64,000 nucleotides of DNA, taken from the IMG/VR virus record IMGVR_UViG_3300025121_000013; one strand, written 5' to 3'. A model generated the notes under the pieces. It made no database searches. It saw only the letters and a list, made by a program, of their open reading frames with translations, and was not told the DNA's origin. Position numbers and translations under genes: made by a program. Shown one piece after another: positions 5,689 through 46,701 of the stretch. This DNA is from a virus (lineage: Duplodnaviria; Caudoviricetes). Each line of letters opens with the position of its first letter. Position 1 is the stretch's first letter.

Positions 5689-5702
5689 AGAACAAAAATA
5701 AA
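5689..5702 (+). promoter_or_regulatory. AGAACAAA-W2-3-TAAA motif (putative late promoter)
   Basis: The same motif is intergenic at 25273, 28685, 46728, 49616 and 52309. Confidence 0.5.
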
Positions 5703-10619: not shown

Positions 10620-10852
10620 TAATTTATTTCACTTTTAGAAAGTGTCAAAGTTCCGTAATATTCAAAAACTGGTTGGCTATTGAGAATTTCATACATAGAA
10701 TAATTAATTAAACTAAATCCTTTGCCCGTGGAGCCTAATGTTCCCTCATCACTTTTAATAAGAAAATGACTTCTATTTATAGTAAAAATATCCCCTGGTT
10801 TTAAATCGCCAAAGGTTTTTTCTTTTTTATTTTCTATCTTGATTTGGATCAT
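10619..10852 (-). CDS. Paralog family A, one domain
   Basis: FGDLKPGDIF motif. Confidence 0.6.
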   Translation of the reverse strand: MIQIKIENKKEKTFGDLKPGDIFTINRSHFLIKSDEGTLGSTGKGFSLINYSMYEILNSQPVFEYYGTLTLSKSEIN

Positions 10853-10905
10853 GTTCGGTCCTTTCTGAACTCCATATTTTTGATGGTTTATAAAAGTTTA
10901 GGAAT

Positions 10906-11604: not shown

Positions 11605-11677
11605 TTTTCCCCTATTTTTTGATTTTCTTTTATCGATCTACGATATGAAGAAGATCATAGCCCAGACGTTTTAAAAT

Positions 11678-11917
11678 TTATTTTAATGTTCTTTTAATTA
11701 TATCTTTGTCTTCTGGTTTTGACCTGATATCTAAAGTTGAAGAATTTCCAGAACAATTAATTTCATCAGAATATACTTTTAGAAAACCGGCTGAATTTGG
11801 AGCCAAGGTTTTAAATTCATTCGTTATAAATTCCGACATTTTTTTATGATCGATAATATCGGGAAATAGTACAGAAAAGGATTCTCCAGAAGAGTTTTTA
11901 AAAATGATATATTTCAT
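11678..11917 (-). CDS. Hypothetical protein
   Basis: Phage-type small ORF (SAGF, C.G.S.TL..S). Confidence 0.6.
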   Translation of the reverse strand: MKYIIFKNSSGESFSVLFPDIIDHKKMSEFITNEFKTLAPNSAGFLKVYSDEINCSGNSSTLDIRSKPEDKDIIKRTLK

Positions 11918-12180
11918 CTAATTCTAATCTTAAAATACTTTTTAGTATTTTTAAAAAACGTTGTTGAAAATGCAAATAAACAACAAATCAATTGAAAAAA
12001 TAATATGTTAAAAGCAAAAGTCCATGTACTTAAATGATCGTTTGGATATTTCATAAAAATAATAAAAAACCATATTGTCTCAATAATATAAGTAATAAAA
12101 ATAAGTATTGATATATAATAAATAAAATTCTTTTTTAAATCACTCATTTTTAAGAATTCTTTTCTAAGATGCGATATCAT
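11914..12180 (-). CDS. Small membrane protein
   Basis: Two hydrophobic segments. Confidence 0.5.
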   Translation of the reverse strand: MISHLRKEFLKMSDLKKNFIYYISILIFITYIIETIWFFIIFMKYPNDHLSTWTFAFNILFFQLICCLFAFSTTFFKNTKKYFKIRIR

Positions 12181-12503
12181 TTTTCAATTTTCTTTTTTTG
12201 AGTTTTCACCCATTCTAAATAATCTCTTTTAATCTTATCAATTTTAATAAACTCTAACGGATCTTTTATCCAAAATTTCTTTTCAATATATTTAAAATCA
12301 TAGAAACATGCTTCAAAAGAAAATTTTAATTCTTGATATTTAAAATAATAAATTGGTGTATGATAAAAATTTATAAAGGAGTTTATTAAATTAAATGCAA
12401 ATTTAATTCTTCTACCCATGTATATCCACCAGAACATATTTAACACACTTAGACATAATAAAATCGATGTAAATATAATAGGGATATAGAGATTTTCTTT
12501 CAT
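12177..12503 (-). CDS. Membrane-anchored hypothetical protein
   Basis: N-terminal hydrophobic helix. Confidence 0.5.
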   Translation of the reverse strand: MKENLYIPIIFTSILLCLSVLNMFWWIYMGRRIKFAFNLINSFINFYHTPIYYFKYQELKFSFEACFYDFKYIEKKFWIKDPLEFIKIDKIKRDYLEWVKTQKKKIEK

Positions 12504-12514
12504 ATATTCTCCTC

Positions 12515-12724
12515 TCAGAACTTTCGTTTTATTTTAATGTATTTATCTTTTAAAAGAATTTCTTTCATTTCTTCATTTTGAAAATAAATCGCCATTAAGA
12601 TTGAAAAAATTGCAAATACAAGAATACAAAGACAATTAAATATATTTCTTTGAACTATAAATCCAGAAGAACCAAAAGAAATAAACGCTATAATGAAGAA
12701 TATCATTTTTAGAGCGCTATTCAT
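12515..12724 (-). CDS. Small membrane protein
   Basis: Two hydrophobic segments. Confidence 0.5.
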   Translation of the reverse strand: MNSALKMIFFIIAFISFGSSGFIVQRNIFNCLCILVFAIFSILMAIYFQNEEMKEILLKDKYIKIKRKF

Positions 12725-12726
12725 TT

Positions 12727-13161
12727 TTAATTCTCTTCCTCAGGAATAAAATCTTCTTCTTCTTCTTCATCATCATAATTATCTAGATCAATATTTTCAT
12801 CAACATTTCCCATCAAATTTCCTTGGTTTCCCCAACCTTGATTGGGATCATTTTCAGATCTTGTTTTTGGAATTTCTCCTTTAAAACATTTTGTATGAAC
12901 TGCAGCAATTCCATTGGATTTATTATCATTAAACATCAAATCACAAACGTCACCCCAGTCTAAATCCCATTGAATAGAATCCCTTAAATTTTCATTTATC
13001 TTTTCGTTAGAGAAAACTCTTCCATATGAATCATATTCTCCACTCATCACCTGAATGCAATTCCCATCTTTCAATAAAAACAATTTTGTAGTTTGACCTC
13101 GAAAACTATTTGATAGAATCGCTTCTCCACATTCCTTGCAGATAAAACTAAAACATCCTAT
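12727..13161 (-). CDS. Hypothetical protein with acidic tail; probable ATA start
   Basis: The frame is open upstream of 13083 to ATA-GGA-TGT-TTT (MGCFSFICKECG), with AAGGA just upstream. Confidence 0.6.
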   Translation of the reverse strand: MGCFSFICKECGEAILSNSFRGQTTKLFLLKDGNCIQVMSGEYDSYGRVFSNEKINENLRDSIQWDLDWGDVCDLMFNDNKSNGIAAVHTKCFKGEIPKTRSENDPNQGWGNQGNLMGNVDENIDLDNYDDEEEEEDFIPEEEN

Positions 13162-13203
13162 GGGGTATTTTCCTTTCAGAACATGTTTTTAATGGAAATT
13201 GAT

Positions 13204-13506
13204 CTAATTAAAACTTCTTATCTCAGCGTTCATTAAAACGGCAAATTCTTTTGCTAATTCAATATTTGGAAAAACCAATTTTGCTTCATCAATTAAGACT
13301 ACTCCTTTTTGTGGTGGCTTGTTAAATCTATAAGGAAGAAGTACAGTAAAAAATTCTCCCTGAGAGTTTTGAGTTTCATAGATTGTCACAAAGTCAATTT
13401 TTGGTTTTTCTTTTAAAAAAATTTTAACCTCGGGATCATTCCCAAAATGTCTTGTTAGTTTTTCAAGCTTTTGATCTTTTTTCCTCTTAGATATATTTTT
13501 TAGCAT
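13204..13506 (-). CDS. Hypothetical protein
   Basis: ATG at 13506 follows AGGAAGG. Confidence 0.6.
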   Translation of the reverse strand: MLKNISKRKKDQKLEKLTRHFGNDPEVKIFLKEKPKIDFVTIYETQNSQGEFFTVLLPYRFNKPPQKGVVLIDEAKLVFPNIELAKEFAVLMNAEIRSFN

Positions 13507-13522
13507 GTTTTCCTTCCTTTTT

Positions 13523-13568
13523 GGAAATGGATGGGGAGGAAGAGAGAATAACCTCCCCATCCATTTCC
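13523..13568. other. Perfect 17-bp inverted repeat
   Basis: GGAAATGGATGGGGAGG, 12-nt loop, CCTCCCCATCCATTTCC. Confidence 0.85.
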
Positions 13569-13621
13569 TTAGAAATACAACTCAATCGAACTATAGATTT
13601 CATTCTTTTTGTTAATAATTT

Positions 13622-13873
13622 TTATTCTTTTAAATCGTTTGGATTTCTATTTCGACAGGAACATTGATTTATATTAGGATGAGAGTGCCCTCTCTTTTCC
13701 AATGCTTCCCAAAATTCTTTTGCATTATGTCTGGTTAGTAGATTTTCTTTTGGCTTATTTACCCTTCCCTTTTCATGTACTGGGATTGGAAGTCCAAGAG
13801 ATTCACATTTCGCTTCAACCCAAGCTCTTTCATGATTCAATGAAACTTTCCAATGTGGAAATTCAGTTTCCAT
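13622..13873 (-). CDS. Hypothetical protein
   Basis: ORF with RBS. Confidence 0.55.
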   Translation of the reverse strand: METEFPHWKVSLNHERAWVEAKCESLGLPIPVHEKGRVNKPKENLLTRHNAKEFWEALEKRGHSHPNINQCSCRNRNPNDLKE

Positions 13874-13890
13874 TTTTTCTCCTTTCTTTG

Positions 13891-14130
13891 TTATTCTTTT
13901 TTAAGAAGTTCAATAATTTCTTGAACGAAATAATAAATTGAAACTCCTAACATGCATAAAGAATATAGAATCAAGAACATTCCATGAGCTGGAAACTTTT
14001 CCAATAGAAAAACCCCAACGAAAATTCCACAATTGAGAATGCATAAAAGCAATAATTTCATCTTCAAAGGGTCATTGAATTTTTTCAATTTTTTATATGG
14101 ACCATATGGGTTAAAATTCTTTTGTATCAT
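13891..14130 (-). CDS. Small membrane protein
   Basis: Two hydrophobic segments. Confidence 0.5.
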   Translation of the reverse strand: MIQKNFNPYGPYKKLKKFNDPLKMKLLLLCILNCGIFVGVFLLEKFPAHGMFLILYSLCMLGVSIYYFVQEIIELLKKE

Positions 14131-14265
14131 TCAGATTCTCCATTCTTGATAAAATAGTATCTCCATCGAATTGATTCCATTTCAAATGAAGAAGAACTCA
14201 TCGAAGAAATATAACCCAACAGAATTTTTCTTTTCAATCTCAATTCAGACATTTAAATTGATTTA

Positions 14266-14460
14266 TTAATCATGAAGAATAACAAGTTCAAAATTCCAAA
14301 AGAATACCTCTACCAAGATATTGCCATCATTTTTGTCCCTTTCAAAACCAAACCCAAAATGTTTATAATGCGGATTAAAACAATCTTTTAATATAACCTC
14401 TAATCTCCCTATTTTTCTTGAAAAATATATCTTTTCATCATAGAGGTCGACAAAGTCCAT
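14266..14460 (-). CDS. Hypothetical protein
   Basis: ORF with RBS. Confidence 0.5.
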   Translation of the reverse strand: MDFVDLYDEKIYFSRKIGRLEVILKDCFNPHYKHFGFGFERDKNDGNILVEVFFWNFELVILHD

Positions 14461-14480
14461 GTGGTTTCCTTTCTTTACTT

Positions 14481-14981
14481 TTATTGCTCTGTGTCAGTAC
14501 CTTCAGTGTTTGCCATCATATCAATTGATATTGATTTTGCTAAATTATCAATTCCCATTTCTTCGATCATTTCTTTTCCTTCTTCAGTGAGGCTCAATAC
14601 TTCAGTTCCAATTGGAGGGTCATACCCATCATACCAGACCCCACAAAAATCCATGGCCTCTTGTAAAAGATGTTTCTTAATTCGAATATTTCTGGTCTCA
14701 TCTTCGAACTAAAAATATTCACAAATGGGACAAATCAAAAAATTGAGAACCCTATCGACTTGTTTGTAATTGATCCAATCAAAAAGGTTATCCCATGAAA
14801 AAATAACATCTACCATCGTCACATCCAATATGTCTGATATAATCGATTGGATCAATTCATCATCGGTCATATTATCAATTGAGATATTTCCATTGAATGC
14901 GTGACATACATATCTCCATAATTCATTATCAGGAAAGGATGAAAATGTATTTTTGTATATCTCAACCAGTCCGTTTCGCAT
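14481..14981 (-). pseudogene. Hypothetical gene with an in-frame TAG at 14709-14711
   Basis: The frame continues for 75 coding-like codons after the TAG (FEDETRNIR..GTDTEQ), with no well-spaced start of its own. Confidence 0.5.
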
Positions 14982-15014
14982 TTAACTATCTACTTTCAAA
15001 AAGTAAAACTCTAT

Positions 15015-15037
15015 CTCATTTATTAATATATATAGTT
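15015..15037 (-). promoter_or_regulatory. AACTATATATATTAATAAATGAG motif (putative early promoter)
   Basis: Identical 23-mer at 25214 and 46679. Confidence 0.65.
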
Positions 15038-15053
15038 AAATTTTTACAAAAAA

Positions 15054-15087
15054 ATAAAGGGGCATAAAACCTTCTCCGCCCCTTTAT
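15054..15087 (-). terminator. Rho-independent terminator
   Basis: ATAAAGGGGC/GCCCCTTTAT stem with a T-tract on the minus strand. Confidence 0.75.
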
Positions 15088-15171
15088 ATTCTAATTCTTT
15101 ATGTTTATCTATTTTTCCCTAAATAGTATAAAAATGGAGAGATAAAAATATAAAGACTGATTTTAAATATT

Positions 15172-15396
15172 TTAGTCATAATTTAAAACTGCATTCTCCA
15201 ATACTTTAACATAAAGATCAGTTTTGATATGGCATAAATTTCCATTATCCAGGAATACTGAATTTCGTGTCTCTCCGTTTTTTAAGATGACTTTGGGAAT
15301 TTTCATTAGAAATAAACCATTAATAGTGAAAGGAATTCCACATTTAACATTTTCAAAAGTAACATCATTGTACTTTTCCGATTTCTTTATCTTCAT
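15172..15396 (-). CDS. Paralog family A, dispersed member
   Basis: MKI..F.NVK.G.PF..FLMKI..L.NG.L pattern. Confidence 0.6.
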   Translation of the reverse strand: MKIKKSEKYNDVTFENVKCGIPFTINGLFLMKIPKVILKNGETRNSVFLDNGNLCHIKTDLYVKVLENAVLNYD

Positions 15397-15411
15397 CTTC
15401 CCCTTCTTTCT

Positions 15412-15603
15412 TTATGGCTTATTTTTCATTGAGATTTTTCTTGGTTTTTTATCGTCAAAAATTTCTTGAAGTTTTATTTCATCTATAGGCAATATAGCTG
15501 AATCAAGAAAAATTTCAGCATCTTTTCTCGCTGAAATATCATTTAAAGAATGAAAGGTATAAACTATTGTCAGTCTGTATTTCTTTCCAGATGTTGACTT
15601 CAT
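15412..15603 (-). CDS. Hypothetical protein
   Basis: Small ORF. Confidence 0.5.
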   Translation of the reverse strand: MKSTSGKKYRLTIVYTFHSLNDISARKDAEIFLDSAILPIDEIKLQEIFDDKKPRKISMKNKP

Positions 15604-15782
15604 TTAAGATACATAACCACTGAAGCCTACAGATTTAATTTCTAAATTTTCCTTTTTCTTTCTTCTGATCAATTTATTATATTGTCTTTTGGCCCATTTT
15701 TTAAATTTATGTCCGGCTTTTTGACCAGATATCTGTTCCTTATATGTGGCCATATGGTCTCCTTTAAAACTTATTTAAATAG

Positions 15783-15817
15783 CTCCGAGAGGGCTTTTGT
15801 TTCTTGCCCTCTCGGAG
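15783..15817 (-). terminator. Perfect 12-bp hairpin, terminator-like
   Basis: CTCCGAGAGGGC/GCCCTCTCGGAG; the U-tract is weak. Confidence 0.55.
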
Positions 15818-15844
15818 GTTAAAGTTAAAAATTATTTTGATTGG

Positions 15845-16009
15845 TTAAAGAGAAGTTTCCTTCTTTTCATATCTGAATGTGGAATGCCAGGTTTTCTTAT
15901 TTTTTGCTGCGAAGATCTTTATTTTCGGAATTTCATCGATCTGTATGTCGAAAGAAGTTCTGTGAAAGACAAAAAGAAATCCGGCTATGAAGAATAGCGT
16001 AGTGAGCAC
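15845..16009 (-). CDS. Small hypothetical protein (GTG start)
   Basis: AAGGAG followed by GTG; hydrophobic N-terminus. Confidence 0.4.
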   Translation of the reverse strand: MLTTLFFIAGFLFVFHRTSFDIQIDEIPKIKIFAAKNKKTWHSTFRYEKKETSL

Positions 16010-16035
16010 TCTTTTCTCCTTTTCTTTTGGGAGAT

Positions 16036-16455
16036 TTAGTTGGGAACAATGGAAAGGATTTCTGTTGCCCACAATGGAAGTTTATAATTCTTGAAATACC
16101 TTCTGGATCTTTCGATAAATTCGATGATGTCATCAGCGTAATCTGGGTGCATTCTCGAATTATAATATTTGATCTGGTCTTCAAAATTATCAAATTTAAG
16201 ACCATCGATGCTTCTGGCGGCTGCTGTGAAGAAGCCAATCGCCTTATCAAATTTATCGGGAGGCACGACCTTTTCAGGTTCTCCCTTTTTGTTAATTACC
16301 ATCGGCTTTTGCCTGCAAAAGGAAAAGCCGATATGAATCTGTGGATCTCCAATTTCGGTCCATGAAAAAAGAACTCCAGTTTTCTGATTGTTTTCATTTC
16401 GTACATATTCCAACAGATATCCACTATTCCTTTGCTTCCTCGGGCCGTCTTCCAT
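16036..16455 (-). CDS. Phage hypothetical protein
   Basis: 139-aa ORF in the block's strand orientation. Confidence 0.6.
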   Translation of the reverse strand: MEDGPRKQRNSGYLLEYVRNENNQKTGVLFSWTEIGDPQIHIGFSFCRQKPMVINKKGEPEKVVPPDKFDKAIGFFTAAARSIDGLKFDNFEDQIKYYNSRMHPDYADDIIEFIERSRRYFKNYKLPLWATEILSIVPN

Positions 16456-16780
16456 AGAAGGCGATTCCTTTCTTATTGGTTGTTTGTTGTTTTCTTTTTA
16501 GACTTTTAAAATTGAATTCAGGAATTAAAATATATAACCATGAGATAAAGAATATGACAAAGGATATTGATAAATATAATTTCAGAGTTTTATAATCTAA
16601 TGTATGATTTTTAATTATGGTTAAACAAAATGAAAATATTCCAATTAAAATTATTAGTGCTATACATCTTAAAATAGTATTCTTTAGAGTCAAAATTATT
16701 CTCCCTTCTCCTTGGGATCTTTCCAATTTCCTTTTGCTAAAATATTTGAAATATAAATTGAGCATCTTGTGAAAAAACAT
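16424..16780 (-). CDS. Membrane protein
   Basis: Two hydrophobic segments. Confidence 0.45.
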   Translation of the reverse strand: MFFHKMLNLYFKYFSKRKLERSQGEGRIILTLKNTILRCIALIILIGIFSFCLTIIKNHTLDYKTLKLYLSISFVIFFISWLYILIPEFNFKSLKRKQQTTNKKGIAFYGRRPEEAKE

Positions 16781-16944
16781 TCCGTATCTACAGGATAATC
16801 AAAATCTATTGAGTTCTTTGTAATTAGGAGAGGACAATGATATTGTTCATTTTTTTTAATTTTTAAGGGACAATATTTGAGGAATACAGCAAAAGCTTTT
16901 TCATTTCCAGGAAAGGTTTTTTGTTTTAAATCGTGAAAACTCAT
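16696..16944 (-). CDS. Hypothetical protein
   Basis: Coupled to the upstream ORF; several Cys residues. Confidence 0.5.
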   Translation of the reverse strand: MSFHDLKQKTFPGNEKAFAVFLKYCPLKIKKNEQYHCPLLITKNSIDFDYPVDTECFFTRCSIYISNILAKGNWKDPKEKGE

Positions 16945-17309
16945 TCCTCAACAATTCTAAATGATTTACATAATGCAACGTTAAAAGATTTTCCGTTAAT
17001 GAAATTTAATTCTTTTCTTTGTCCCAACCCTTTTCTATATTCAATTTTTTTAACAATCAATTCTGAGAAATCTGGGACGGATAATAATATATCTTTAAGA
17101 ACATTTGTAGTTTCAGGCTCTTCAAGAAAAAAGCAAAATCCATCATCAACAACATTATATTTTGCCCAATTGATCCAGCCATCTTCTTTTTCATAATTAG
17201 AAAACATAAATCCACGAAGATGGCCATTAATTTGAGAAAATATTTTCCATCCAAAACCATTTTCGGGAATCGGAAAAACTTCACTCCCATTTTCCAGTTT
17301 ATTGCACAA
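16941..17309 (-). CDS. Hypothetical protein
   Basis: TTG start after AAGGAG, downstream of the tRNA; the track's longer start lies inside tRNA-Lys. Confidence 0.6.
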   Translation of the reverse strand: MCNKLENGSEVFPIPENGFGWKIFSQINGHLRGFMFSNYEKEDGWINWAKYNVVDDGFCFFLEEPETTNVLKDILLSVPDFSELIVKKIEYRKGLGQRKELNFINGKSFNVALCKSFRIVEE

Positions 17310-17344
17310 AGAGAATCTCCTTAAGATCAGTGATATCAAGATGA

Positions 17345-17416
17345 TGGGGCCGGTTGGGCTCGAACCAACGACTCTCTGCTTAAAAGGCAGATACTCTACC
17401 ACTGAGTTACGGCCCC
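17345..17416 (-). tRNA. tRNA-Lys(TTT), CCA not encoded
   Basis: Full cloverleaf; acceptor GGGGCCG/CGGCCCC; anticodon loop CTTTTAA. Confidence 0.95.
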
Positions 17417-17434
17417 ATTTAGACACGTAATATT

Positions 17435-17812
17435 TTATTCTTTAGGAAGATTTTCTAAAATAGTTCTAAATGTAATATAAATATATTTTTTACTTTCCTT
17501 ATTTATAAATGAAAAATATATTCCCGATCTTGTTGAAATATATTCTTTCTCAATATCAGTTTTTAGTTCTCCTAAATATTCTAAACAAATTCCATATATA
17601 GTACTTTGATAAATAGTTGGTTCTGTCGAATTTTCATCTAGAGGGTCTTTTTCATATATTTTCATAAATCTTTGTATCAATTCTTTTTGTGTTGTTAAAC
17701 AATCTTTTTTTATAACCCAATCTATCAGTAATTGACACTCTGTTTCACAAATATCTCTTAGAACACATTCAGAACAAATTGAAGGCAACCCATGAATTGT
17801 TATCCTTTTCAC
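17435..17812 (-). CDS. Hypothetical protein carrying the array's Cx2Cx5Cx3C motif
   Basis: ICSECVLRDICETEC. Confidence 0.65.
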   Translation of the reverse strand: MKRITIHGLPSICSECVLRDICETECQLLIDWVIKKDCLTTQKELIQRFMKIYEKDPLDENSTEPTIYQSTIYGICLEYLGELKTDIEKEYISTRSGIYFSFINKESKKYIYITFRTILENLPKE

Positions 17813-18429
17813 ATTAAAACCACTCCGAAAACTATCCCCTGAATGAAGCCATATATAACTTCAGATTGACTCCATTTATTATCCATGTGTGGATATTTAG
17901 GAATATTGATTAAACAAGGAATATTAACGCTAATCGGAAAAGATATACTTAAAATAAAAATATATATTAAATATATTGGGCTTAAAATTAAAAATGGTAT
18001 AAAAGGGGGAACCCAAAAATATAAACCTCTAATAAATAATGCTACATTTGCATACAAAAGATAATTTTTTTCATGAGAAATAAAAACTTCTGTGATTTGA
18101 GAAATGCCATCACAAATTCTATATCCAAAAAAGTTTCCACAGCTTTTTTCTGGATTATAATTTTTTGGATCTTTATCGATAATCGTTGCAATCCATGTTC
18201 CCCATCCAAACGACTCACCGATTTTATATAAGATATAACCAATAAATTCACAAAAGAAAATATTCCAATGAGTTTTAAAATATAAAATTATCCCAATAGA
18301 AATTCCAATTCCTAATTTTGCAAATGTGTCCATTTCTATTTCTTGAACTTTAATATCAGAGCCACGTACCCTATGTAAAAAACTAAATACAATTCCTATA
18401 AAAATCACAATGAAAAATTTAATTATCAT
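17809..18429 (-). CDS. Multi-pass membrane protein
   Basis: Several hydrophobic helices. Confidence 0.65.
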   Translation of the reverse strand: MIIKFFIVIFIGIVFSFLHRVRGSDIKVQEIEMDTFAKLGIGISIGIILYFKTHWNIFFCEFIGYILYKIGESFGWGTWIATIIDKDPKNYNPEKSCGNFFGYRICDGISQITEVFISHEKNYLLYANVALFIRGLYFWVPPFIPFLILSPIYLIYIFILSISFPISVNIPCLINIPKYPHMDNKWSQSEVIYGFIQGIVFGVVLM

Positions 18430-18432
18430 TTT

Positions 18433-18822
18433 TTAAAATTTATCTTTGATTATTGAACTAATCATTTTTCCATCCGCTTTTGTTCCAAAATGATTTTTAA
18501 TAATTCCAATAGCTTGCATTTTATTTTTCAAAGAACTAAAATCAATATGATTTGAAATCCACATTAATAATTCTTCTTCAGATATAGGTTGAGGTATGTA
18601 CTGTTTTAAAATTGAAATATAAACTTCATCTGGCACTGGAAACTTTTTTGCATCATCAGCCATTTTATTTAAAAGATTTATTATTCTTTGATCTTCGATT
18701 TCTTTTTTTGTATCTATTCTTGCCAATTCTCCCATTATAATAATCAATACATTTTTCTTTATTTCATCTTTTTCTTTTCTAGCTTTTTGAAGGTCGGCTT
18801 TTATTTTCTGTTGAATTGTCAT
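18433..18822 (-). CDS. GatB/YqeY domain protein
   Basis: MTIQQKIKADLQKARKEKDEIKKNVL..LKQYIP..MGII pattern. Confidence 0.75.
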   Translation of the reverse strand: MTIQQKIKADLQKARKEKDEIKKNVLIIIMGELARIDTKKEIEDQRIINLLNKMADDAKKFPVPDEVYISILKQYIPQPISEEELLMWISNHIDFSSLKNKMQAIGIIKNHFGTKADGKMISSIIKDKF

Positions 18823-19619
18823 TTAGTTAGAGGAAGATTACAAATTAAACCGATTTGTCTAATCATTTCTGATATTTCTAAAACAGGAATATTTAAAATT
18901 TTCGAAATTTCTTCCCTCTTTTTCTCTTCAAAAAAGATATAATTTATAATTTGTTTTTGACTTTCAGTCAATTTTTCAAGATTTGGTTTAACATTAGATT
19001 CATAAACTTCTCCTGGATGAAAGGATAAAAGTTGAAAATTAGGATATAATTTTTTAAAAGAAACATCTAGAGTTCTACAGAGGTGAAGAATGACATTCTT
19101 ATAACAATATTTATTAATATTTTTCATATGAATTGGAGAAACATTTCCATTCATTATACTTCTCAACGTAGAATATGACAATCCAGTCCCTTTCATGATG
19201 TCTTCTATTCGAGATCCATAAAGAGAATAACAAAATTCTTCAACTTTATTTTCAAAATGCCAACGAGTTCTTTCATTTTTTTCTTTAACCATACTAATAG
19301 GAATTGGAATTGGTTCAGGAATTGTAGTTGAAGGTGGAATTTCCGGAACAATATTTTTTGTTTTAAGTTTTTCTGCTAGAGGAACGATCATATCCAATTC
19401 TTTTTTATGTTTATCCATATAAAATTTATAAATAAATTCAGGAGAAATGCCGAAATATTTTGAAAGTTTAAGAACTCCACAGGTACTAAATTCTACATCG
19501 TCATTTAAAGCTGCTGTGAGGCCTTTTACAGTTCCAAAAAGGTGTTTGGCCATTTCTTCAATTGAAATATTATTTGGTTTCAAAAAACATTCGATGATCA
19601 TCTCTCCTATTGAGTACAT
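18819..19619 (-). CDS. Multi-HTH regulator (HigA-like N-terminus, central HTH, sigma-r4-like C-terminus)
   Basis: GEMIIECFLKPNNIS..LSKYFGISPEF; DIMKGTGLSYSTL; LTESQKQII..EEISKILNI. Confidence 0.6.
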   Translation of the reverse strand: MYSIGEMIIECFLKPNNISIEEMAKHLFGTVKGLTAALNDDVEFSTCGVLKLSKYFGISPEFIYKFYMDKHKKELDMIVPLAEKLKTKNIVPEIPPSTTIPEPIPIPISMVKEKNERTRWHFENKVEEFCYSLYGSRIEDIMKGTGLSYSTLRSIMNGNVSPIHMKNINKYCYKNVILHLCRTLDVSFKKLYPNFQLLSFHPGEVYESNVKPNLEKLTESQKQIINYIFFEEKKREEISKILNIPVLEISEMIRQIGLICNLPLTK

Positions 19620-19935
19620 TTGTTGCCTTTCTTTTCTAGCTTTTGAACATCAACTTTTATATCTTGTTGGATCGACATATCAACCTTTCAAATCAGATCT
19701 GATTTGACAAAATTTAGTTTTAAGAAAAGATTTAAAGGTTATTTAATTTTTCCTTTTTGTGATTTCATTCTATTTGATAAATCTATAAGATCTGACCATT
19801 CGCTGTTATTTTGTTCTGGCTCTTCTTTTGGGGTTTTTCCCCAATCAATATTATCATAGTTATCTCTATATTTTTTTGAGACCGCCTTATGATCTTTAGA
19901 CATTAAGTTTTCCATGGTTTATTTTCCTTTATCTA

Positions 19936-20574
19936 TTATTTTTTATAATAGTGTTTTTGTTGAATATATTTTAAAACTTTAGGTAATGACATAAAAGGTG
20001 TCTCACATTTAGAAGAATAATATCTTATCATATTTACACAGCCCTCATTTGTTTTTGGATTAATTATAAGAGAATATGAGCCACCTTGTGATAATGTTTC
20101 TTCCATAATATGAAATACAATAATTTCATGTTCAAAATCATACATGTCATCTTCAAAAGGAATCATAAAAGGTAGAATTGTCTTTAAGCCATTTTCAACC
20201 TTTTTTAATTGTTCATCATCATTTTTATTTAAACAAATCTCGATAGCAACTTGTTTTATTTTAGGAAAATAACCCATTGTTTTTAAACCTAAATCTGAAA
20301 GATATGTTTCTAATTCTTTGCGGAAAGGACTATTTCCACAATCGTTTACGGATAATAAGGCTTTCCAATCAGGCCCATTCAATTTCATGTCTTCTTTTTT
20401 TAAGTTAACTTTTTTAAGAAGTAAAGCTTCTTTTTCTTTTTTATATTTTTCGATAATTTTATTAAATGGCTTCATTAATTTATATAAAGGTTTTATATTT
20501 TCATCATGAACTTTTTTAGAAAGTAAATCTAGTTCTTCGATCTGTTTATCTATTTCCTCATATTTTTCTTCCAT
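19936..20574 (-). CDS. Hypothetical coiled-coil protein
   Basis: The real start is probably MEEKY; the track's N-terminal extension is the adjacent tRNA. Confidence 0.65.
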   Translation of the reverse strand: MEEKYEEIDKQIEELDLLSKKVHDENIKPLYKLMKPFNKIIEKYKKEKEALLLKKVNLKKEDMKLNGPDWKALLSVNDCGNSPFRKELETYLSDLGLKTMGYFPKIKQVAIEICLNKNDDEQLKKVENGLKTILPFMIPFEDDMYDFEHEIIVFHIMEETLSQGGSYSLIINPKTNEGCVNMIRYYSSKCETPFMSLPKVLKYIQQKHYYKK

Positions 20575-20606
20575 AAAGAAGTCCTTTCTTTTTTTGTTTT
20601 GAAAAA

Positions 20607-20691
20607 TGCCGATGGAAGGATTCGAACCTTCATGATGGGAACTCACATCAGGGTGGCCAAGCCGAGCGTCTTCCATTTTCGCCACATCGGC
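20607..20691 (-). tRNA. Atypical type-II tRNA with a Leu-like body and an aberrant anticodon arm
   Basis: Perfect acceptor GCCGATG/CATCGGC with discriminator A, D-arm, T-arm GAAGG-TTCGAAT-CCTTC and a long variable arm. The anticodon stem does not pair canonically. Confidence 0.7.
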
Positions 20692-20697
20692 ATATGA

Positions 20698-20787
20698 TGG
20701 TGCCTAAGACGGGAGTCGAACCCGTACAGGGATTTCTCCACCGAGGGATTTTAAGTCCCTTGCGTCTACCAGTTCCGCCACTCAGGC
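20698..20787 (-). tRNA. tRNA-Leu(TAA), CCA encoded
   Basis: Cloverleaf with long variable arm; anticodon loop CTTAAAA. Confidence 0.95.
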
Positions 20788-20832
20788 ACATTGAACTCAT
20801 TTCACTGCCTTAAACTAATGCAACGTATTCTT

Positions 20833-21549
20833 TTAAGTGGCTATATATAATTGATCAATACCTTCCGAAAGAAGTCTAATCAATTTATCCTTTGGAATTG
20901 CATAGCGTTCTCTCATTGATTTATAAACTTTTTCTGTTTCCTCAATGTAAGCTTTCACAAAATTTTTATAAAATTCTTTAAAGGTTGGATCATTGGCTAT
21001 AATATCTTTGGTTTGAATATATGTAGAGTCCTCATAATGCAACATATGGTTTTTTTCATGTTTGAAATTTGTATCAAAAGAATTAATATTTTCAAGCTTT
21101 TTAAATGCCAATTTATCAAAGATACAAAATGTGGAATTTTGCTTTAAAACAATATAAACATGTTTATCACTTCCAACTGAAATATTTGTTTGAATTAATG
21201 CACTTTTGCCTTCTTTTGATAAAGTCGCTGCATTTAAAAAATCATTGAAAATTTGATCAAATTTTTTCGTAATATTTTCTAATTGTATATAGCTTCGCCT
21301 TAGTTCTTTATTATTATTTAACCAAATAACATGTTTTTCATTTTTTCCTTTATGAGAATCTTCCCAGAAATAATGAACCCAGCCCCAAGGAATTCCTTTT
21401 AATGTCATAGATTTTTCATCTATAATATCTTCTTCTAAAATTTGTCTAAAGACTCTTTGTGTTAATTGTCTATTCCCAATTAAAATGGTTTTCACACTAA
21501 CCGTTGTTGTTGTAACAGATATTTTTTCCATCTCGAGATCCCTTTTCAT
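20833..21549 (-). CDS. Phage hypothetical protein
   Basis: 238-aa ORF. Confidence 0.65.
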   Translation of the reverse strand: MKRDLEMEKISVTTTTVSVKTILIGNRQLTQRVFRQILEEDIIDEKSMTLKGIPWGWVHYFWEDSHKGKNEKHVIWLNNNKELRRSYIQLENITKKFDQIFNDFLNAATLSKEGKSALIQTNISVGSDKHVYIVLKQNSTFCIFDKLAFKKLENINSFDTNFKHEKNHMLHYEDSTYIQTKDIIANDPTFKEFYKNFVKAYIEETEKVYKSMRERYAIPKDKLIRLLSEGIDQLYIAT

Positions 21550-21790
21550 AATCTTTTTTTGAATTTTCTAAAATAAAATTTTTAACTTCTTTTATCAATT
21601 TTCTAACATCATTTTTATCAAAATCAAAAGTTGTAAAGACGCATATCAGATATGAATTATCAGAGAATATTATTTTTCCAATACTAGACTCACTTAAATT
21701 TTTTCTTTTGTCTATGTAAAGAAAAAGATCTACAATTTCTTTTAACGTCATGTCTATAAATAAATGATTCATAATCAAAACATGTTCCAT
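21497..21790 (-). CDS. Hypothetical protein
   Basis: ORF downstream of tRNA-Ser. Confidence 0.5.
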   Translation of the reverse strand: MEHVLIMNHLFIDMTLKEIVDLFLYIDKRKNLSESSIGKIIFSDNSYLICVFTTFDFDKNDVRKLIKEVKNFILENSKKDYEKGSRDGKNICYNNNG

Positions 21791-21817
21791 GGCGATCCCT
21801 TTCTTTGGGATTTTATG

Positions 21818-21905
21818 TGGCGGAGGGTGTAGGATTCGAACCTACGGTGGCTTTCACCACAACGGTTTTCAAGACCGCCGCTTTCGTCCTCTCAGCCAAC
21901 CCTCC
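21818..21905 (-). tRNA. tRNA-Ser(TGA), CCA encoded
   Basis: Acceptor GGAGGGT/ACCCTCC with discriminator G; anticodon loop CTTGAAA; long variable arm. Confidence 0.95.
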
Positions 21906-21909
21906 TTGA

Positions 21910-21983
21910 TGGCGGTGCCTGGATTCGAACCAGGGATCCCTCGATTATCGGTCGAGTGCTCTACCAGGCTGAGCTACACCGCC
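21910..21983 (-). tRNA. tRNA-Ile(GAT) with C33, CCA not encoded
   Basis: Cloverleaf; anticodon loop CCGATAA. Confidence 0.92.
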
Positions 21984-21998
21984 TTAGACAAAAATTCT

Positions 21999-22216
21999 TT
22001 ATTTTCCAACAAGTATCTTTTTTAATTTTTTTAATGAACTTTTATGTATTTTTTGAACTCTTTGAAATGATATCCCCATTTTGTTCGCTATTTCTCTTAA
22101 ACTTAAGTTTTCAAAATATAAAAAGTATACCACTTGTTTTTGTCGATCATTTAAACGGTTTAAAAGTTGTTCAATATCAATATCAATATCATTATCAACA
22201 TCTTTTTCCCTCTCAC
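21999..22216 (-). pseudogene. Stand-alone sigma-70 region 4 HTH protein, one base short in an A5 run near the start
   Basis: DIEQLLNRLNDRQKQVVYFLYFENLSLREIANKMGISFQRVQKIHKSSLKKLK. A GTG start overlapping the upstream TGA is in frame if one A is added at 22203-22207. Confidence 0.7.
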
Positions 22217-22653
22217 TCTTTTAAAAAATAATACGATAATATAGTATTATATACATGCCTATTTGGGGCGTAACGTTTAAAAAAGAATTGATCATCGCCA
22301 TTAAATATTTTTGAAATTGCGGCTGCGACTCCAGCGGATCTAGAAATTCCAGCATCGCATTGACATAATAAAAAATTATCTTCGTTTATAAAATCAAGTA
22401 TTGTTTTAGCTAAATTTTTATCAAAAAGAATTATTTTTCTTTTTAGTTTTTTCTCTATTTCTTCCTCATCAATTTTTTTCATTGGGTCTAGATCATCAAA
22501 AAATATTTGTAACATTCTTTGTCTAAATTTATTTTCAGGATATATTATATGTTTATCCCCAGGGGTCGAAATTGATATAATATCATGAGGAATTGAAATA
22601 TTATCTTCAGTTATTTTATTAACCTCTCTTCTCCCTAAAACTAAGATCTTCAT
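22213..22653 (-). CDS. Protein-tyrosine/dual-specificity phosphatase-like protein
   Basis: Cx5R loop CDAGISRS; IISIS, FDDL and PNRHV motifs. Confidence 0.8.
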   Translation of the reverse strand: MKILVLGRREVNKITEDNISIPHDIISISTPGDKHIIYPENKFRQRMLQIFFDDLDPMKKIDEEEIEKKLKRKIILFDKNLAKTILDFINEDNFLLCQCDAGISRSAGVAAAISKIFNGDDQFFFKRYAPNRHVYNTILSYYFLKE

Positions 22654-22671
22654 AAATGTTCTCTTCTTATC

Positions 22672-23049
22672 TTAATTATTAAGTTCATGAATATGTATAT
22701 CTATTTCTTTGTACCTAATTTTTTCTTTTCCATTTTTTAAAATATTTTTTGTTCCTTTCATAATTAAATACATTTGTTCATTTTTTGGGACATCGGGGTA
22801 TGTAAATTTATCAATTACATTACACCCACATGTCTTTGGCTCTTCAAATAAAATTAACTGTTTATTTTCGTCTAAAATATATATTGAATGATTATCATTT
22901 TCTCCGATCTTAAATTCAACTATTTCAATTCTTTTTTCAATTGAAGAAGAATTCTTCACCCTATAACCAGAGAGAGCATTATATTCCAAACTAAGAATCC
23001 CTAATACAAAAAATACAATCAAAACCTTAAAGATAAAACTTTTTGCCAT
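22672..23049 (-). CDS. Exported or membrane-anchored hypothetical protein
   Basis: Signal-like N-terminus. Confidence 0.6.
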   Translation of the reverse strand: MAKSFIFKVLIVFFVLGILSLEYNALSGYRVKNSSSIEKRIEIVEFKIGENDNHSIYILDENKQLILFEEPKTCGCNVIDKFTYPDVPKNEQMYLIMKGTKNILKNGKEKIRYKEIDIHIHELNN

Positions 23050-23100
23050 CAGAGGCCGCCTTTCTTTTCAAAGATGAAAAACTATAGTTTTGAAATTAAT

Positions 23101-23175
23101 TGGAGCCGGTGGAGGGATTTGAACCCACGGCTTGCTGATTACAGATCAGCTGCTCTGCCACTGAGCTACACCGGC
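23101..23175 (-). tRNA. tRNA-Thr(TGT) with C33, CCA encoded
   Basis: Acceptor GCCGGTG/CACCGGC; anticodon loop TCTGTAA; one T-stem mismatch. Confidence 0.92.
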
Positions 23176-23183
23176 TCTTGACT

Positions 23184-23915
23184 CTATTTCACTGCCTTAA
23201 ATTCATTTAATGAATTCAATCGATATTTGACATTTGGAAGAAGGCCATCTTCTCCAATATAGCCAACTTTAATTCTTTTTCTATTATTTTTATAATAAGA
23301 TATTTGAATTATTCCGCAATCTCCTGCGGTAGCAGTTCCGCAATATCCTGCGGTAGCGGTTCCGTAATCTCCTGCGGTAGCAGTTCCGCCATTTCCTGCG
23401 GTAGCGGTTCCGTCATCTCCTGCGGTAGCGGTTCCGCCATCTCCTGCGGTAGCGGTTCCGTCATCTCCTGCGGTAGCGGTTCCGCCATCTCCTGCGGTAG
23501 CGGTTCCGTTATCTCCTGCGGTAGCGATTCCGTTATCTCCTGCGGTAGCGATTTCATTGTCTCCGGCAACATAAGTCGCGCCAATGATCGGCTGACCATT
23601 TTTTACGAATTTCTTCATGAATTCTGTGGAATGAAAACGATCTCCGACAAAGAGAACCTTAACCTCTTCAGATTTTGCTTTCCCATCAAATTCAATGCAA
23701 GATGTCGTTTGAAGAACAATCCATTTAGCGGTTAGATCCCAATTCAACCAAGAGGGGTTTCCTTGCCCATTCTTTAAAAAATAAAGTCCTCCAGTACATC
23801 TCGGATTAGGATCCCAATTTAAACACTTTACTTTTCCTTGCATTGGCCATTGAAAATTATCTCTAGAAATCATGTTTTCTGGGCATGTTCTTAACCCGTA
23901 GATGTACTTCGGCAT
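23184..23915 (-). CDS. Phage protein with ATAGDxGT octapeptide repeats
   Basis: Globular N-terminus (WDPNPRCTGGL), about 11 8-aa repeats, and a C-terminal GYIGEDGL..NVKY. Confidence 0.75.
   Translation of the reverse strand: MPKYIYGLRTCPENMISRDNFQWPMQGKVKCLNWDPNPRCTGGLYFLKNGQGNPSWLNWDLTAKWIVLQTTSCIEFDGKAKSEEVKVLFVGDRFHSTEFMKKFVKNGQPIIGATYVAGDNEIATAGDNGIATAGDNGTATAGDGGTATAGDDGTATAGDGGTATAGDDGTATAGNGGTATAGDYGTATAGYCGTATAGDCGIIQISYYKNNRKRIKVGYIGEDGLLPNVKYRLNSLNEFKAVK
23322..23570. repeat. 24-bp coding tandem repeat
   Basis: CTCCTGCGGTAGCGGTTCCG(C/T)CAT-like units. Confidence 0.9.
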
Positions 23916-23969
23916 TCTCTTTCTCCCTTTAACGTATTCTTTAAAATATATATGTTCTATAAAAGTTAA

Positions 23970-24839
23970 TTAATCAATTAACTTTATTTTTTGTTTTTTA
24001 TTTAAAATACTTTGTATGATAATTCCTGTTAGATCATCCATAGTTAATTTTGAAGGATCATTCTCAGGAGAACTAATTAAATTTCTTCTATATATCCATC
24101 CGGGTTCAAGAGATGAAATTTTTGTAAAAATGTCATTCCCTCGAATATTTTTTAATGAGATTGTATATTTAATAAAATTATCTGTTAATTTAGAAATTAA
24201 AATATCAGGATTATATAGTTTTCTAATTACCGGCATTATGCCATAAAATTCACTTGAGATTTGACATATTTTTATATTTTGTTCTTTGATAACAATTGTA
24301 TTTTTTAACGCATAGGGTCTTAAAATACTTTTATATTTTTTCTTAATTGAGGCGAACATTTCAAATCCAGATATTGAACTAAAAACATCTTGTTCTTCAT
24401 CAATGATTCTTCGTAAAACATAAAGCCCTTTTTCAAATGCCATTTTATTATCATTTTTATATTTTATTAATACTCCAGAAATTATATCAGTCAACATGGG
24501 AAATTTAACTTTTCCATAATTCGTAAAACCTCTTGGACCTTTTGTCTCAAGAATATTTATATATTCTACAATATCTTTAAGATGTTTTGGGCATCCTTTA
24601 TATTTCCACGCTTGCATTGAAGCGGTTTCAGTAATTCCATTTCCATGATGATCCCAACAATTTAAATCTGTTCGTCCAGAATATTCATGTGTGCATTCTA
24701 TGCAACAAATTTCTTTATCTAAAATATCTTTTGTAGGAACTTTATTTGAAAAAATAATTTTATTATGATCTTGGAGTTCAAGACAAATGTATGTAATTAA
24801 AACATCCAAGTCTATCTTTTTCGAAACATAGATATACAT
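23970..24839 (-). CDS. DHH-family phosphoesterase-like protein
   Basis: IDLD, WDHH and ETAS motifs in DHH order; DHHA1-like C-terminus. Confidence 0.55.
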   Translation of the reverse strand: MYIYVSKKIDLDVLITYICLELQDHNKIIFSNKVPTKDILDKEICCIECTHEYSGRTDLNCWDHHGNGITETASMQAWKYKGCPKHLKDIVEYINILETKGPRGFTNYGKVKFPMLTDIISGVLIKYKNDNKMAFEKGLYVLRRIIDEEQDVFSSISGFEMFASIKKKYKSILRPYALKNTIVIKEQNIKICQISSEFYGIMPVIRKLYNPDILISKLTDNFIKYTISLKNIRGNDIFTKISSLEPGWIYRRNLISSPENDPSKLTMDDLTGIIIQSILNKKQKIKLID

Positions 24840-24871
24840 AACATACCTCTTCTCGTTAAAGATTCTTTTTT

Positions 24872-25006
24872 GACATACCCGTTGTTTCTTCCATTGAGGT
24901 ATACAACGGGAAAAATACCTATGTTTGGCCCAGGGAATTAAGAGGAAGTGATGGGAGGCTTAATCCCCTGACAGATGGAAGACCCTGCTACATGAACATC
25001 CTCCCT
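24872..25006 (-). ncRNA. Structured RNA-like element, copy 1
   Basis: Five complementary helix pairs; a G.U wobble favours the minus strand. Confidence 0.65.
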
Positions 25007-25019
25007 AATTTTGATTTTT

Positions 25020-25147
25020 GACATACCCGTTGTTTCTTCCATTGAGGTATACAACGGGAAAAATACCTTTAGGATAGGGAATCAAGAATTCGTCTTGGGA
25101 GGCTTGATTCCCTTCAGATGGAAGACCCTGGCCATGTGTTCCTCCCT
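25020..25147 (-). ncRNA. Structured RNA-like element, copy 2
   Basis: Shares an identical 54-bp block with copy 1 and shows compensatory changes in the long stem. Confidence 0.65.
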
Positions 25148-25213
25148 TAGATTTTTAAAGTTTTCTTTTTTTTCTAAATTGATTAGAAATAAAAAAAATA
25201 AAATTCAACCTTT

Positions 25214-25236
25214 CTCATTTATTAATATATATAGTT
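25214..25236 (-). promoter_or_regulatory. AACTATATATATTAATAAATGAG motif (putative early promoter)
   Basis: Identical to 15015 and 46679. Confidence 0.65.
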
Positions 25237-25272
25237 AATAAAAGAAAAATTAAAAGAATCTATAAATATGAA

Positions 25273-25286
25273 AGAACAAATTTAAA
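25273..25286 (+). promoter_or_regulatory. AGAACAAA-W-TAAA motif (putative late promoter)
   Basis: Recurrent upstream of plus-strand blocks. Confidence 0.5.
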
Positions 25287-25314
25287 ATTGGAATATATTT
25301 AAGAAAGGAAAAAT

Positions 25315-25911
25315 ATGGATAGGGGATATTTTAATAAAGAAGATTATAAAAAATGGTTGGATAAAATAGAAAAAATTTTACAAAAAAATATGACGGAAAG
25401 AGGATTTTTATTTTGGAAAGGCTTGAATGAAAAAATTCCAATGATATGGCATAGACCAGTTTCTTCATCTTTTAAATATCATCAAAAAGAAGATCTTAGA
25501 ATTCCAACAATTGCTGAACATGTTTTTGAAATGATATATGCGGCAGTTCCTATTTTAGGAAGTATAAATATAAAATCAAAAACAGAAGATTGTGACACTA
25601 TTCTTTTAGCTATTCTTTTACATGATGGTTTTAAATATGGAAAAACTCCTGACGAATCTAAATTTACAAATAAGCAACATGATAGAATTGTAGCAGATTT
25701 TATAGGAAAAAATAAATTGATTTTTGAACAATTATTTCAAAGCTCTAAAATTGAAATATTAGAAGAAATTGTTAGGTATCATTCTGGACCGTGGTCTCCT
25801 GATGCTAAAAAAGATTTTTGTTTTTCAAATGTTCATCCGTATGTGATGTTTGTTCATTTATTAGATAATTTAAGTTGTAAAAATTTGTTAAAAAATGGAG
25901 AATATGAATGA
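25315..25911 (+). CDS. HD-domain phosphohydrolase/exonuclease
   Basis: EHV..ILLHDGFKYG..H..YHSGPW..VHLLDNL. Confidence 0.82.
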   Translation: MDRGYFNKEDYKKWLDKIEKILQKNMTERGFLFWKGLNEKIPMIWHRPVSSSFKYHQKEDLRIPTIAEHVFEMIYAAVPILGSINIKSKTEDCDTILLAILLHDGFKYGKTPDESKFTNKQHDRIVADFIGKNKLIFEQLFQSSKIEILEEIVRYHSGPWSPDAKKDFCFSNVHPYVMFVHLLDNLSCKNLLKNGEYE

Positions 25912-46678: not shown

Positions 46679-46701
46679 CTCATTTATTAATATATATAGT
46701 T
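46679..46701 (-). promoter_or_regulatory. AACTATATATATTAATAAATGAG motif (putative early promoter) heading the Cys array
   Basis: Identical to 15015 and 25214. Confidence 0.65.

Follow-up and report, generated by a model that had tools for sequence, protein, structure and literature searches.

The 64,000-nucleotide (nt) window analyzed here is part of a 139-kilobase (kb) viral contig in IMG/VR (IMGVR_UViG_3300025121_000013; Duplodnaviria, Caudoviricetes). It contains a tandem pair of pseudoknot-forming units directly in front of a minus-strand gene whose product is predicted to be a DHH/DHHA1-fold phosphoesterase. We read the pair, with a probability of about one-half, as an orphan, cis-acting structured leader RNA that responds to a ligand or a protein. 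Sensing of a small molecule, binding of a protein, and shaping of translation or stability all fall within this reading, which does not separate them. Transcription would run along the minus strand, and the two units would make up most of an approximately 375-nt 5' leader of the DHH operon. An earlier sequence-only reading had proposed an undescribed structured RNA at this position, and the proposal is supported by an excess of helices over chance, conservation of the paired columns, pair-preserving changes, gene layout, and the absence of an Rfam match. The contig has a CheckV completeness of about 45%, and longer assemblies of the uncultured source phage, which comes from groundwater and soil metagenomes, reach 265 to 274 kb. 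Its genome has a GC content of 29%, and the six tRNA genes and the tail-sheath gene in the window mark it as a giant phage.

The element lies inside a 475-nt gap that separates divergent genes, at a transcription boundary where the GC skew switches sign. The minus strand carries every gene from 9704 to 24839; the DHH gene opens this block of about 15 kb, which has many small genes and six tRNA genes. The gap was identical in four independent ENA/JGI contigs among the five compared, the fifth (L005) having 476 nt. In contigs from four runs, the element showed zero substitutions and a single extra T at 25014 in two of the runs, and Logan contigs span the junction between units 1 and 2. Searches of sequencing runs listed no RNA run containing the sequence. 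Since the gap is identical in independent assemblies and contigs bridge the unit junction, the repeat is not an assembly artifact. The element had been described as GC rich in an AT-rich genome, which holds insofar as its GC content is 45% against 29% for the genome, at about the 97th percentile of 140-nt windows; it is lower than that of the tRNAs. The gap contains no minus-strand open reading frame (ORF) of at least 40 amino acids, and coding by a 75-amino-acid plus-strand frame starting at TTG (25011 to 25238) was rejected, as the frame spans one unit only.

The two units stand 148 nt apart and, as first noticed from the sequence alone, share 54-nt blocks (24867 to 24920 and 25015 to 25068) that a repeat search found to be 100% identical. 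The 16-mer CAGATGGAAGACCCTG is likewise identical at 24972 to 24987 and 25115 to 25130, a further repeated block of 38 nt shows 76% identity, and both units contain the stem block AGGGAAT(T/C)AAG...CTT(A/G)AT(C/T)CCCT. Each unit holds the same five helices, of 6, 8, 11, 6, and 8 bp, with their strands in the minus-strand order A B C A' C' D E D' B' E'. From the 5' end, A (GGGAGG) is followed by a linker, B (UCUUCCAU), C (AGGG(G/A)AU(U/C)AAG), A' (CCUCCC), a second linker, and C' (CUU(A/G)AUUCCCU). After a third linker come D (AGGUAU), UUUU, E (CCCGUUGU), D' (AUACCU), CA, B' (AUGGAAGA), AA, E' (ACAACGGG), and the tail UAUGUCAAAAA. Helix A, interleaved with the 11-bp hairpin C, gives one H-type pseudoknot, and helix D, interleaved with the 8-bp hairpin E, gives a second. 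Helix B pairs a loop of the first with a loop of the second, and each unit may thus form a compact domain of two pseudoknots tied by helix B. The coordinates of these strands and of the other features of the locus are collected in Table 1.

Table 1. Features in and around the tandem element. R1 is a covariance model made from the two units.
Feature	Position	Strand	Remarks
Unit 2 (distal, would be transcribed first)	25015-25146	-	R1 161.8 bits; all pairs standard
Unit 2, strands A, B, C, A', C'	25141-25146, 25118-25125, 25103-25113, 25097-25102, 25076-25086	-	
Unit 2, strands D, E, D', B', E'	25063-25068, 25051-25058, 25045-25050, 25035-25042, 25026-25033	-	
Unit 1 (proximal)	24867-25005	-	R1 172.8 bits; all pairs standard, one G.U in helix C
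Unit 1, strands A, B, C, A', C'	25000-25005, 24975-24982, 24959-24969, 24953-24958, 24932-24942	-	
Unit 1, strands D, E, D', B', E'	24915-24920, 24903-24910, 24897-24902, 24887-24894, 24878-24885	-	
Predicted 289-amino-acid DHH/DHHA1-fold phosphoesterase gene	23970-24839	-	First gene of minus block; fold comparison
Ribosome-binding site (RBS) of DHH gene, GAGGUAU	24843-24849	-	Contains AGGUAU, same as strand D
AUG-UAG start-stop	24988-24993	-	6 nt after unit 1 GGGAGG
17-codon open frame (MARVFHLKGIKPPKTNS)	25082-25135	-	Starts 5 nt after unit 2 GGGAGG; not conserved in unit 1
Tail copy T0, AAAAAAGAAAACTTTAA	25155-25171	-	Direct repeat of tail before DHH RBS, in approximately 148-nt phase (alignment A4)
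AU-only hairpin, 5' part of presumed leader	25162-25198	-	Inverted repeat I22; 16-nt arms, 88% complementary
23-nt motif AACTATATATATTAATAAATGAG, candidate promoter of minus block	25214-25236	-	Ends 67 nt upstream of first helix
HD-domain protein gene (phrog_5889), divergent neighbor	25315-25911	+	Family match
Promoter-like motif of HD gene, AAGAACAAATTTAAAA	from about 25272	+	Past element in plus direction

Every pairing named in the sequence-only reading is present in both units, and on the minus strand 39 of 39 pairs are standard in either copy. The duplex energies are -10.3 kcal/mol for A, -9.2 for B, -13.2 and -16.0 for the two copies of C, -4.9 for D, and -11.8 for E. Helices A, B, D, and E have identical sequences in the two copies. 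Helix C differs by one double change, U-A to C-G, and by one change from G.U to A-U; the compensatory change claimed for the long stem is therefore real, and the word "covarying" applies to this single compensatory pair together with the G.U/A-U change. The three linkers between the helices differ strongly between the copies, as had been reported, and they differ in length as well. Some unpaired nucleotides are nevertheless conserved, namely CAGGG, CUG, UUUU, and the tail UAUGUCAAAAA. A loop that had been likened to an anti-Shine-Dalgarno (anti-SD) sequence, AUCACUUCCU, occurs in one copy only.

Perfect Watson-Crick helices of at least 6 bp, counted without overlap, amount to 34 bp in unit 1 and 39 bp in unit 2. 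Dinucleotide shuffles gave a mean of about 10 bp (standard deviation, 6; maximum, 32), and 0 of 2,000 reached the observed helix coverage. A single 6-bp helix is expected by chance in 140 nt, but the full helix set is not. The columns that differ between the copies number 3 of 78 among paired positions and 24 of 62 among unpaired positions (Fisher P = 1.5e-7). Perfect blocks beside scrambled, unequal linkers are not what a young neutral duplication would leave, and the comparison of the two copies suggests that the blocks are either constrained or homogenized between copies.

This last point bears on the view that the stretch has no function or one exerted as DNA. On that view, it would be either a tandem duplication of the region upstream of the gene, with inverted repeats serving as protein-binding, recombination, or origin sites, or a leftover insertion flanked by AAAAAAGAA-CTTTAA. 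Four of the five helices are invariant, and conserved DNA words would account for them equally well. In-phase direct repeats bound the array, the upstream SD and AUG copies resemble duplicated pieces of a gene start, and the site sits at a divergent transcription switch with a change in the sign of the GC skew. Furthermore, no relatives were found in the databases searched, and transcription, like its strand, the promoter, the switch, and any ligand, is something that we infer. We nevertheless regard this view as decidedly unlikely. Apart from the scrambled linkers, the sole variable helix changes in a pair-preserving manner and includes a G.U pair that is sensible only in an RNA of one strand, and five interleaved helices using nearly every conserved base seem unlike operators or iterons. 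The DHH transcript, moreover, must cross the stretch unless its promoter lies in unit 1.

The strand of the presumed leader RNA is indicated by several features. The mismatch in copy 1 is, as had been stated, a G.U pair on the minus strand only; on the plus strand it is A.C, and the stem has an energy of -13.2 kcal/mol on the minus strand versus -9.2 kcal/mol on the plus strand. Read on the minus strand, pseudoknot 2 follows standard H-type geometry: UUUU, a loop of 4 nt, crosses the 8-bp stem, a loop of 12 nt crosses the 6-bp stem, and the junction linker is 0 nt. Read on the plus strand, the minor groove of 8 bp would have to be spanned by an A loop of only 4 nt, and the loop lengths thus appear to fit the minus orientation only. 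The G.U pair, the pseudoknot loop lengths, and the gene layout together favor the minus strand. The recurring motif 67 nt upstream of the element and the position of the promoter-like motif of the HD gene, past the element in the plus direction, also count toward this strand. Because the DHH gene is the first of the minus block and its upstream neighbor is divergent, its promoter must lie in 24840 to 25314. The start codon is 27 nt from unit 1, so the DHH transcript must cross the element unless a promoter is hidden inside unit 1. As a candidate for a promoter inside the units, the tail GAAGAAACAACGGGTATGTC was rejected, since it does not match the recurrent GAACAAA-WWW-TAAA motif of the phage.

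Searches for relatives of the RNA returned only the two units themselves. With Rfam 15 at the gathering threshold, the window gave six tRNAs only, and at E values up to 10 on 3 kb and 401 nt the matches were small nucleolar RNA, microRNA, and small RNA noise far below threshold; a match to a known family, named at the outset as a sign against novelty, was thus not found. R1 detected the two units only on the whole 139-kb contig. An exact 22-mer had no match in IMG/VR. Degenerate patterns run on IMG/VR, JGI metagenomes, and GTDB genomes gave chance matches only, none with a convincing stem or ATGGAA context, and R1 scored none of the 123 loci from these pattern scans above 14.7 bits. The patterns demanded 15 to 21 exact bases, so only fairly close relatives were within reach. 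R1 likewise had no match at two loci of related phages (L125 and L126) whose HD protein is 42% identical. The collection of homologs advised in the sequence-only reading thus went as far as IMG/VR, JGI metagenomes, GTDB, and GenBank phage searches, and it yielded no homolog. No description of such an element was found in the literature. As far as the searches reached, that is, to near relatives or loci with exact words, the element is an orphan.

A pseudoknotted tandem regulatory leader RNA is familiar as a kind, and the architecture and family appear undescribed. Tandem riboswitches (glycine, tandem TPP, and c-di-GMP) and riboswitches in which a pseudoknot sequesters the SD sequence (preQ1-II/III, SAM-II/V, and NAD+-II) share with the element tandem domains of about 140 nt in a 5' leader, an H-type pseudoknot near the RBS, and an anti-SD-like strand with two possible partners. 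Unlike these classes, the element matches no Rfam model, and its two pseudoknots are bridged by a loop-loop helix. As to conservation of the riboswitch type, one phage population provides two copies, whose helices differ by one compensatory pair and one G.U/A-U change. A strict tandem metabolite or signal riboswitch, a self-cleaving ribozyme, and a scaffold with guide loops are, even taken jointly, improbable. Tandem aptamer-like domains do stand directly before the RBS, the conserved unpaired CAGGG, CUG, UUUU, and tail UAUGUCAAAAA could line a pocket, and the fold family of the gene product cleaves pGpG, pApA, pAp, c-di-AMP, and SAM-AMP. On the other hand, no known family was matched by the 401-nt query even at an E value of 10, the gap has no intrinsic terminator, the homologs of the gene lack such a leader, and the linkers have no targets in the contig. 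Among ribozymes, the self-cleaving classes twister, hatchet, pistol, hepatitis delta virus (HDV)-like, and glmS were rejected for want of an Rfam match, and the helix order of the units also differs from the HDV-like order, 1 2 3 3' 1' 4 4' 2'. The suggestion of variable guide loops fared no better. An exact match to the linkers is absent from the 139-kb contig; matches with one mismatch occur there at chance level only, and there is no complement beyond chance. A bridge RNA, omega RNA, or CRISPR RNA-like scaffold was rejected on these grounds and because the neighbors encode DHH and HD phosphoesterases rather than a cognate nuclease or recombinase.

Two further kinds of system resemble the element in part. 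The operators of the Escherichia coli alpha operon (S4), of rpsO (S15), and of T4 gene 32 are well-established pseudoknot operators and share a complex pseudoknot in the leader near the initiation region. By analogy, the gene product or another protein could bind the fold, so that the ribosome is trapped or kept out. In the established cases the operator occurs once and overlaps or abuts the start codon, whereas here 28 unstructured nt lie between the fold and the SD sequence. The antitoxins of type III toxin-antitoxin systems (ToxI, CptI, and TenpI) likewise consist of tandem pseudoknot repeats just upstream of a protein gene, with A-rich unit boundaries. A type III array has 34- to 47-nt repeats, a terminator, and an endoribonuclease of the ToxN/AbiQ/CptN type. 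The units here measure 148 nt, number only two, and lack a terminator, and the downstream protein has a predicted DHH/DHHA1 fold rather than that of a ToxN/AbiQ endoribonuclease; this candidate was therefore rejected.

The downstream gene had been called DHH-like, and its product is, by predicted fold, a DHH/DHHA1 phosphoesterase. A single-sequence AlphaFold model of the protein was unusable, with a predicted local distance difference test (pLDDT) score of 35. An exhaustive HMMER search gave 104 remote homologs, and AlphaFold2 with 44 homologs aligned gave a pLDDT of 92.5. With this model, Foldseek matched PggH (7d62), which is a pGpG phosphodiesterase, and the PAP phosphatase 8a8k, at an E value of 1e-8 and a probability of 1.0. 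Further matches were NrN, whose structure was solved with SAM-AMP, NrnA, NrnB, GdpP, and RecJ, likewise at a probability of 1.0, and DhhP. The protein shares with these phosphoesterases the two-domain fold and the DxD and DHH metal motifs, in which D10, D12, D63, H64, and H65 are kept and are invariant or nearly so among the 44 homologs. The glycine-rich DHHA1 motif, GGGH in general and GWGG in the subfamily, is not preserved and reads GWIY at 247 to 250. The phage protein and its approximately 100 remote homologs also differ from the known enzymes in being unrecognized by Pfam; the phage protein matched no Pfam model, including DHH and DHHA1, and no PHROG. Protein searches from the DHH gene for related loci or proteins gave nothing but the protein itself. 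One homolog (P0006; locus L128, JGI Ga0180438_10000618) is encoded on a bacterial contig beside an AEP-TOTE/Mu-Gam-like protein and a Cas1 gene, a neighborhood which hints at a possible place of the unannotated DHH subfamily in conflict systems.

A bolder version of the leader reading, which we consider a long shot, takes the units for aptamers: a giant phage would carry a new riboswitch class that senses a nucleotide messenger. The messenger would be a linear or cyclic di- or oligonucleotide from host signaling or antiphage defense. Its presence would switch on the DHH/DHHA1 phosphodiesterase, and perhaps also the partner operon of the divergent HD hydrolase, and the messenger would thereby be destroyed.

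The origin of the array may be recorded in its tails. An A-rich tail with a purine tract occurs three times in phase: as T0 upstream of unit 2 (AAAAAAGAAAACUUUAAAAAUCUAAGGGAGG-AACAC-AUG), as T1 between the units (CAAAAAUCAAAAUUAGGGAGG-AUGUUC-AUG-UAG), and as T2 before the DHH gene (CAAAAAAGAAUCUUUAACGAGAAGAGG-UAUGUU-AUG). All three have an SD sequence followed, after 5 to 7 nt, by AUG. The phase of the three tails indicates that the duplicated unit took in the translation-initiation region of the gene; the array would have arisen by tandem duplication of a folded body, an A-rich tail, and an SD/AUG segment. As a result of such a duplication, each body is flanked by SD-like purine tracts and has two anti-SD-like strands (CCUCCC and AUACCUC). 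By the same alignment, strand A (GGGAGG) is the homolog of the real SD sequence of the gene, and T0 is the remnant of a third unit. The 17-codon frame is probably a decayed copy of the translation start of the gene, and GGAGG-AUGUUCAUGUA of unit 1 resembles the DHH start region AGAGGUAUGUU-AUGUA. Coding by the short frames behind the upstream AUGs was rejected, as they are not conserved between the units (17 codons versus a start-stop). A near-identical direct repeat of 16 to 17 nt, AAAAAAGAA(AA/U)CUUUAA, brackets the array on the minus strand at 25155 to 25171 and 24856 to 24871; the two copies are 300 nt apart, in phase with the 148-nt period.

On the preferred reading, the folded domain most likely acts in cis on the expression of the gene behind it, and an unspecified ligand or protein would stabilize the fold. 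Formation of the fold would then decide whether the anti-SD-like strands are locked within it or are free to mask the RBS, GAGGUAU. The strand AUACCUC (24896 to 24902), in the loop of hairpin E, has two possible partners, AGGUAU of strand D and the RBS. It is complementary to the latter over 7 nt, with -7.8 kcal/mol against -4.9 kcal/mol for D:D'. This complementarity is the sole hint of an expression platform, and a weak one.

The sequence-only reading had placed a minus-strand promoter motif about 65 nt from the element. The 23-nt motif is real and stands 67 nt off; it is a candidate promoter of ambiguous direction. Three exact copies occur in the window (15015 to 15037, 25214 to 25236, and 46679 to 46701), with 0 expected by chance, and three further copies occur in the genome. 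The copy at 15015 lies between a minus-direction intrinsic terminator on one side and a minus-strand gene starting 38 nt away on the other, a context that fits a minus-direction promoter. On its plus-strand side, the motif is preceded by a common A-tract (AAAAAAAATAAAA) and AACCTT, and the GAACAAA motif usually stands on its other side. Instead of an early promoter that works one way, the 23-nt motif may be a promoter module active in both directions. A separate motif, (A/T)AGAACAAA-WWW-TAAA, precedes some 20 ORF starts genome-wide, on either strand, at a distance of 20 to 100 nt (in the window, for example, at 5690, 25274, 28686, 46729, and 52310 on the plus strand), and it is likely to be a phage-specific promoter class.

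A promoter-proximal position is also what phage early-leader RNAs, such as HK022 put and the T7 A1-A2 region, have in common with the element, in that a repeated, pseudoknotted RNA heads an early-type unit. A folded RNA with another job than sensing for translational control of the DHH gene is conceivable: a put-like RNA that modifies the polymerase, a 5' stabilizer against exonucleases, or stable noncoding RNAs released as decoys or sponges. The element sits shortly after a recurring early-type motif and heads the 15-kb minus block, where read-through of terminators would matter, and the complete identity of four helices fits recognition by a sequence-specific protein. The put-like architecture of two hairpins is absent, however, as are processing signals. 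At the window's two other copies of the 23-nt motif, the leaders measure just 38 and 83 nt and include no comparable domain. The T7 leader shows no similarity in sequence or structure (R1 with filters off, at most 1.1 bits on T7 400 to 1000), and the present units have about twice the length and no promoters between them; a T7-type early-leader RNA was rejected on the R1 score, which concerns T7 only. We consider a folded RNA with another job unlikely.

Several observations weigh against a regulatory leader RNA. The nested-fold z scores are unremarkable: on the minus strand the two units taken singly give -1.5 and -1.6, and the entire leader gives -2.0. This is expected if the fold is pseudoknotted, but the energies lend no support either. 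With no homolog in the databases searched, the case for covariation consists of two copies and one compensatory pair. Blastn of 475 nt against 50,697 phage records gave nothing at an E value of 0.01 or less, and one unit at E values up to 10 gave only 19- to 24-nt chance matches. Helices A, B, D, and E, being identical between the copies, are uninformative on pairing, and their identity could reflect gene conversion or DNA-level constraint. Five of the closest among the distant DHH homologs have upstream gaps of 23 to 263 nt, four of them 23 to 57 nt, and the gene family as such does not come with a long leader; R1 found nothing at two of the homolog loci (L127 and L128), with two more (L254 and L255) unscanned and one locus without DNA. 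Four other genome copies of the 23-nt motif have a GAACAAA-WWW-TAAA motif and a gene in the opposite direction, which makes the direction of the 23-nt motif ambiguous, and around one copy all genes lie on the plus strand. A scan found no sigma-70-like promoter and no terminator in the 475-nt gap. The proposed switch is sterically awkward, since pairing with the SD sequence needs hairpin E to be open (0-nt linker), and SD-like complementarities of 6 to 7 nt arise easily by chance. The candidate is good but unproven, and it comes from a single lineage.

Some features elsewhere in the phage also stand out. The second gene of the minus block (23184 to 23915, minus strand) encodes a 243-amino-acid protein with about 13 tandem GTATAGD heptads, a weak DUF4774 match, and membership in phrog_18079. 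The heptad-coding stretch makes a 64% GC island in the 29% GC genome, with a peak at 23369 to 23508. At 20606 to 20692 on the minus strand, ARAGORN called a tRNA-like gene with a four-base "ggcc" anticodon, adjoining tRNA-Leu(taa); Rfam gave it 37 bits only. The GC-richest stretch of the contig (G000:C1:151-1742), with 140-nt windows at 54 to 69% GC, lies about 68 to 70 kb before the window.

A real, regulatory fold would represent a new RNA architecture, in which two H-type pseudoknots are locked by a loop-loop helix and the whole is present in tandem. The enzyme that it would place under RNA control is of a family whose members break down nucleotide second messengers and nanoRNAs. From the two diverged copies it can already be seen which bases are constrained. 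Should the units sense a nucleotide messenger, the locus would be an RNA-sensed counterdefense circuit. More broadly, phage takeover or counterdefense would, with a real element from the little-explored giant phages of groundwater, gain an RNA layer, and a new candidate aptamer would become available.

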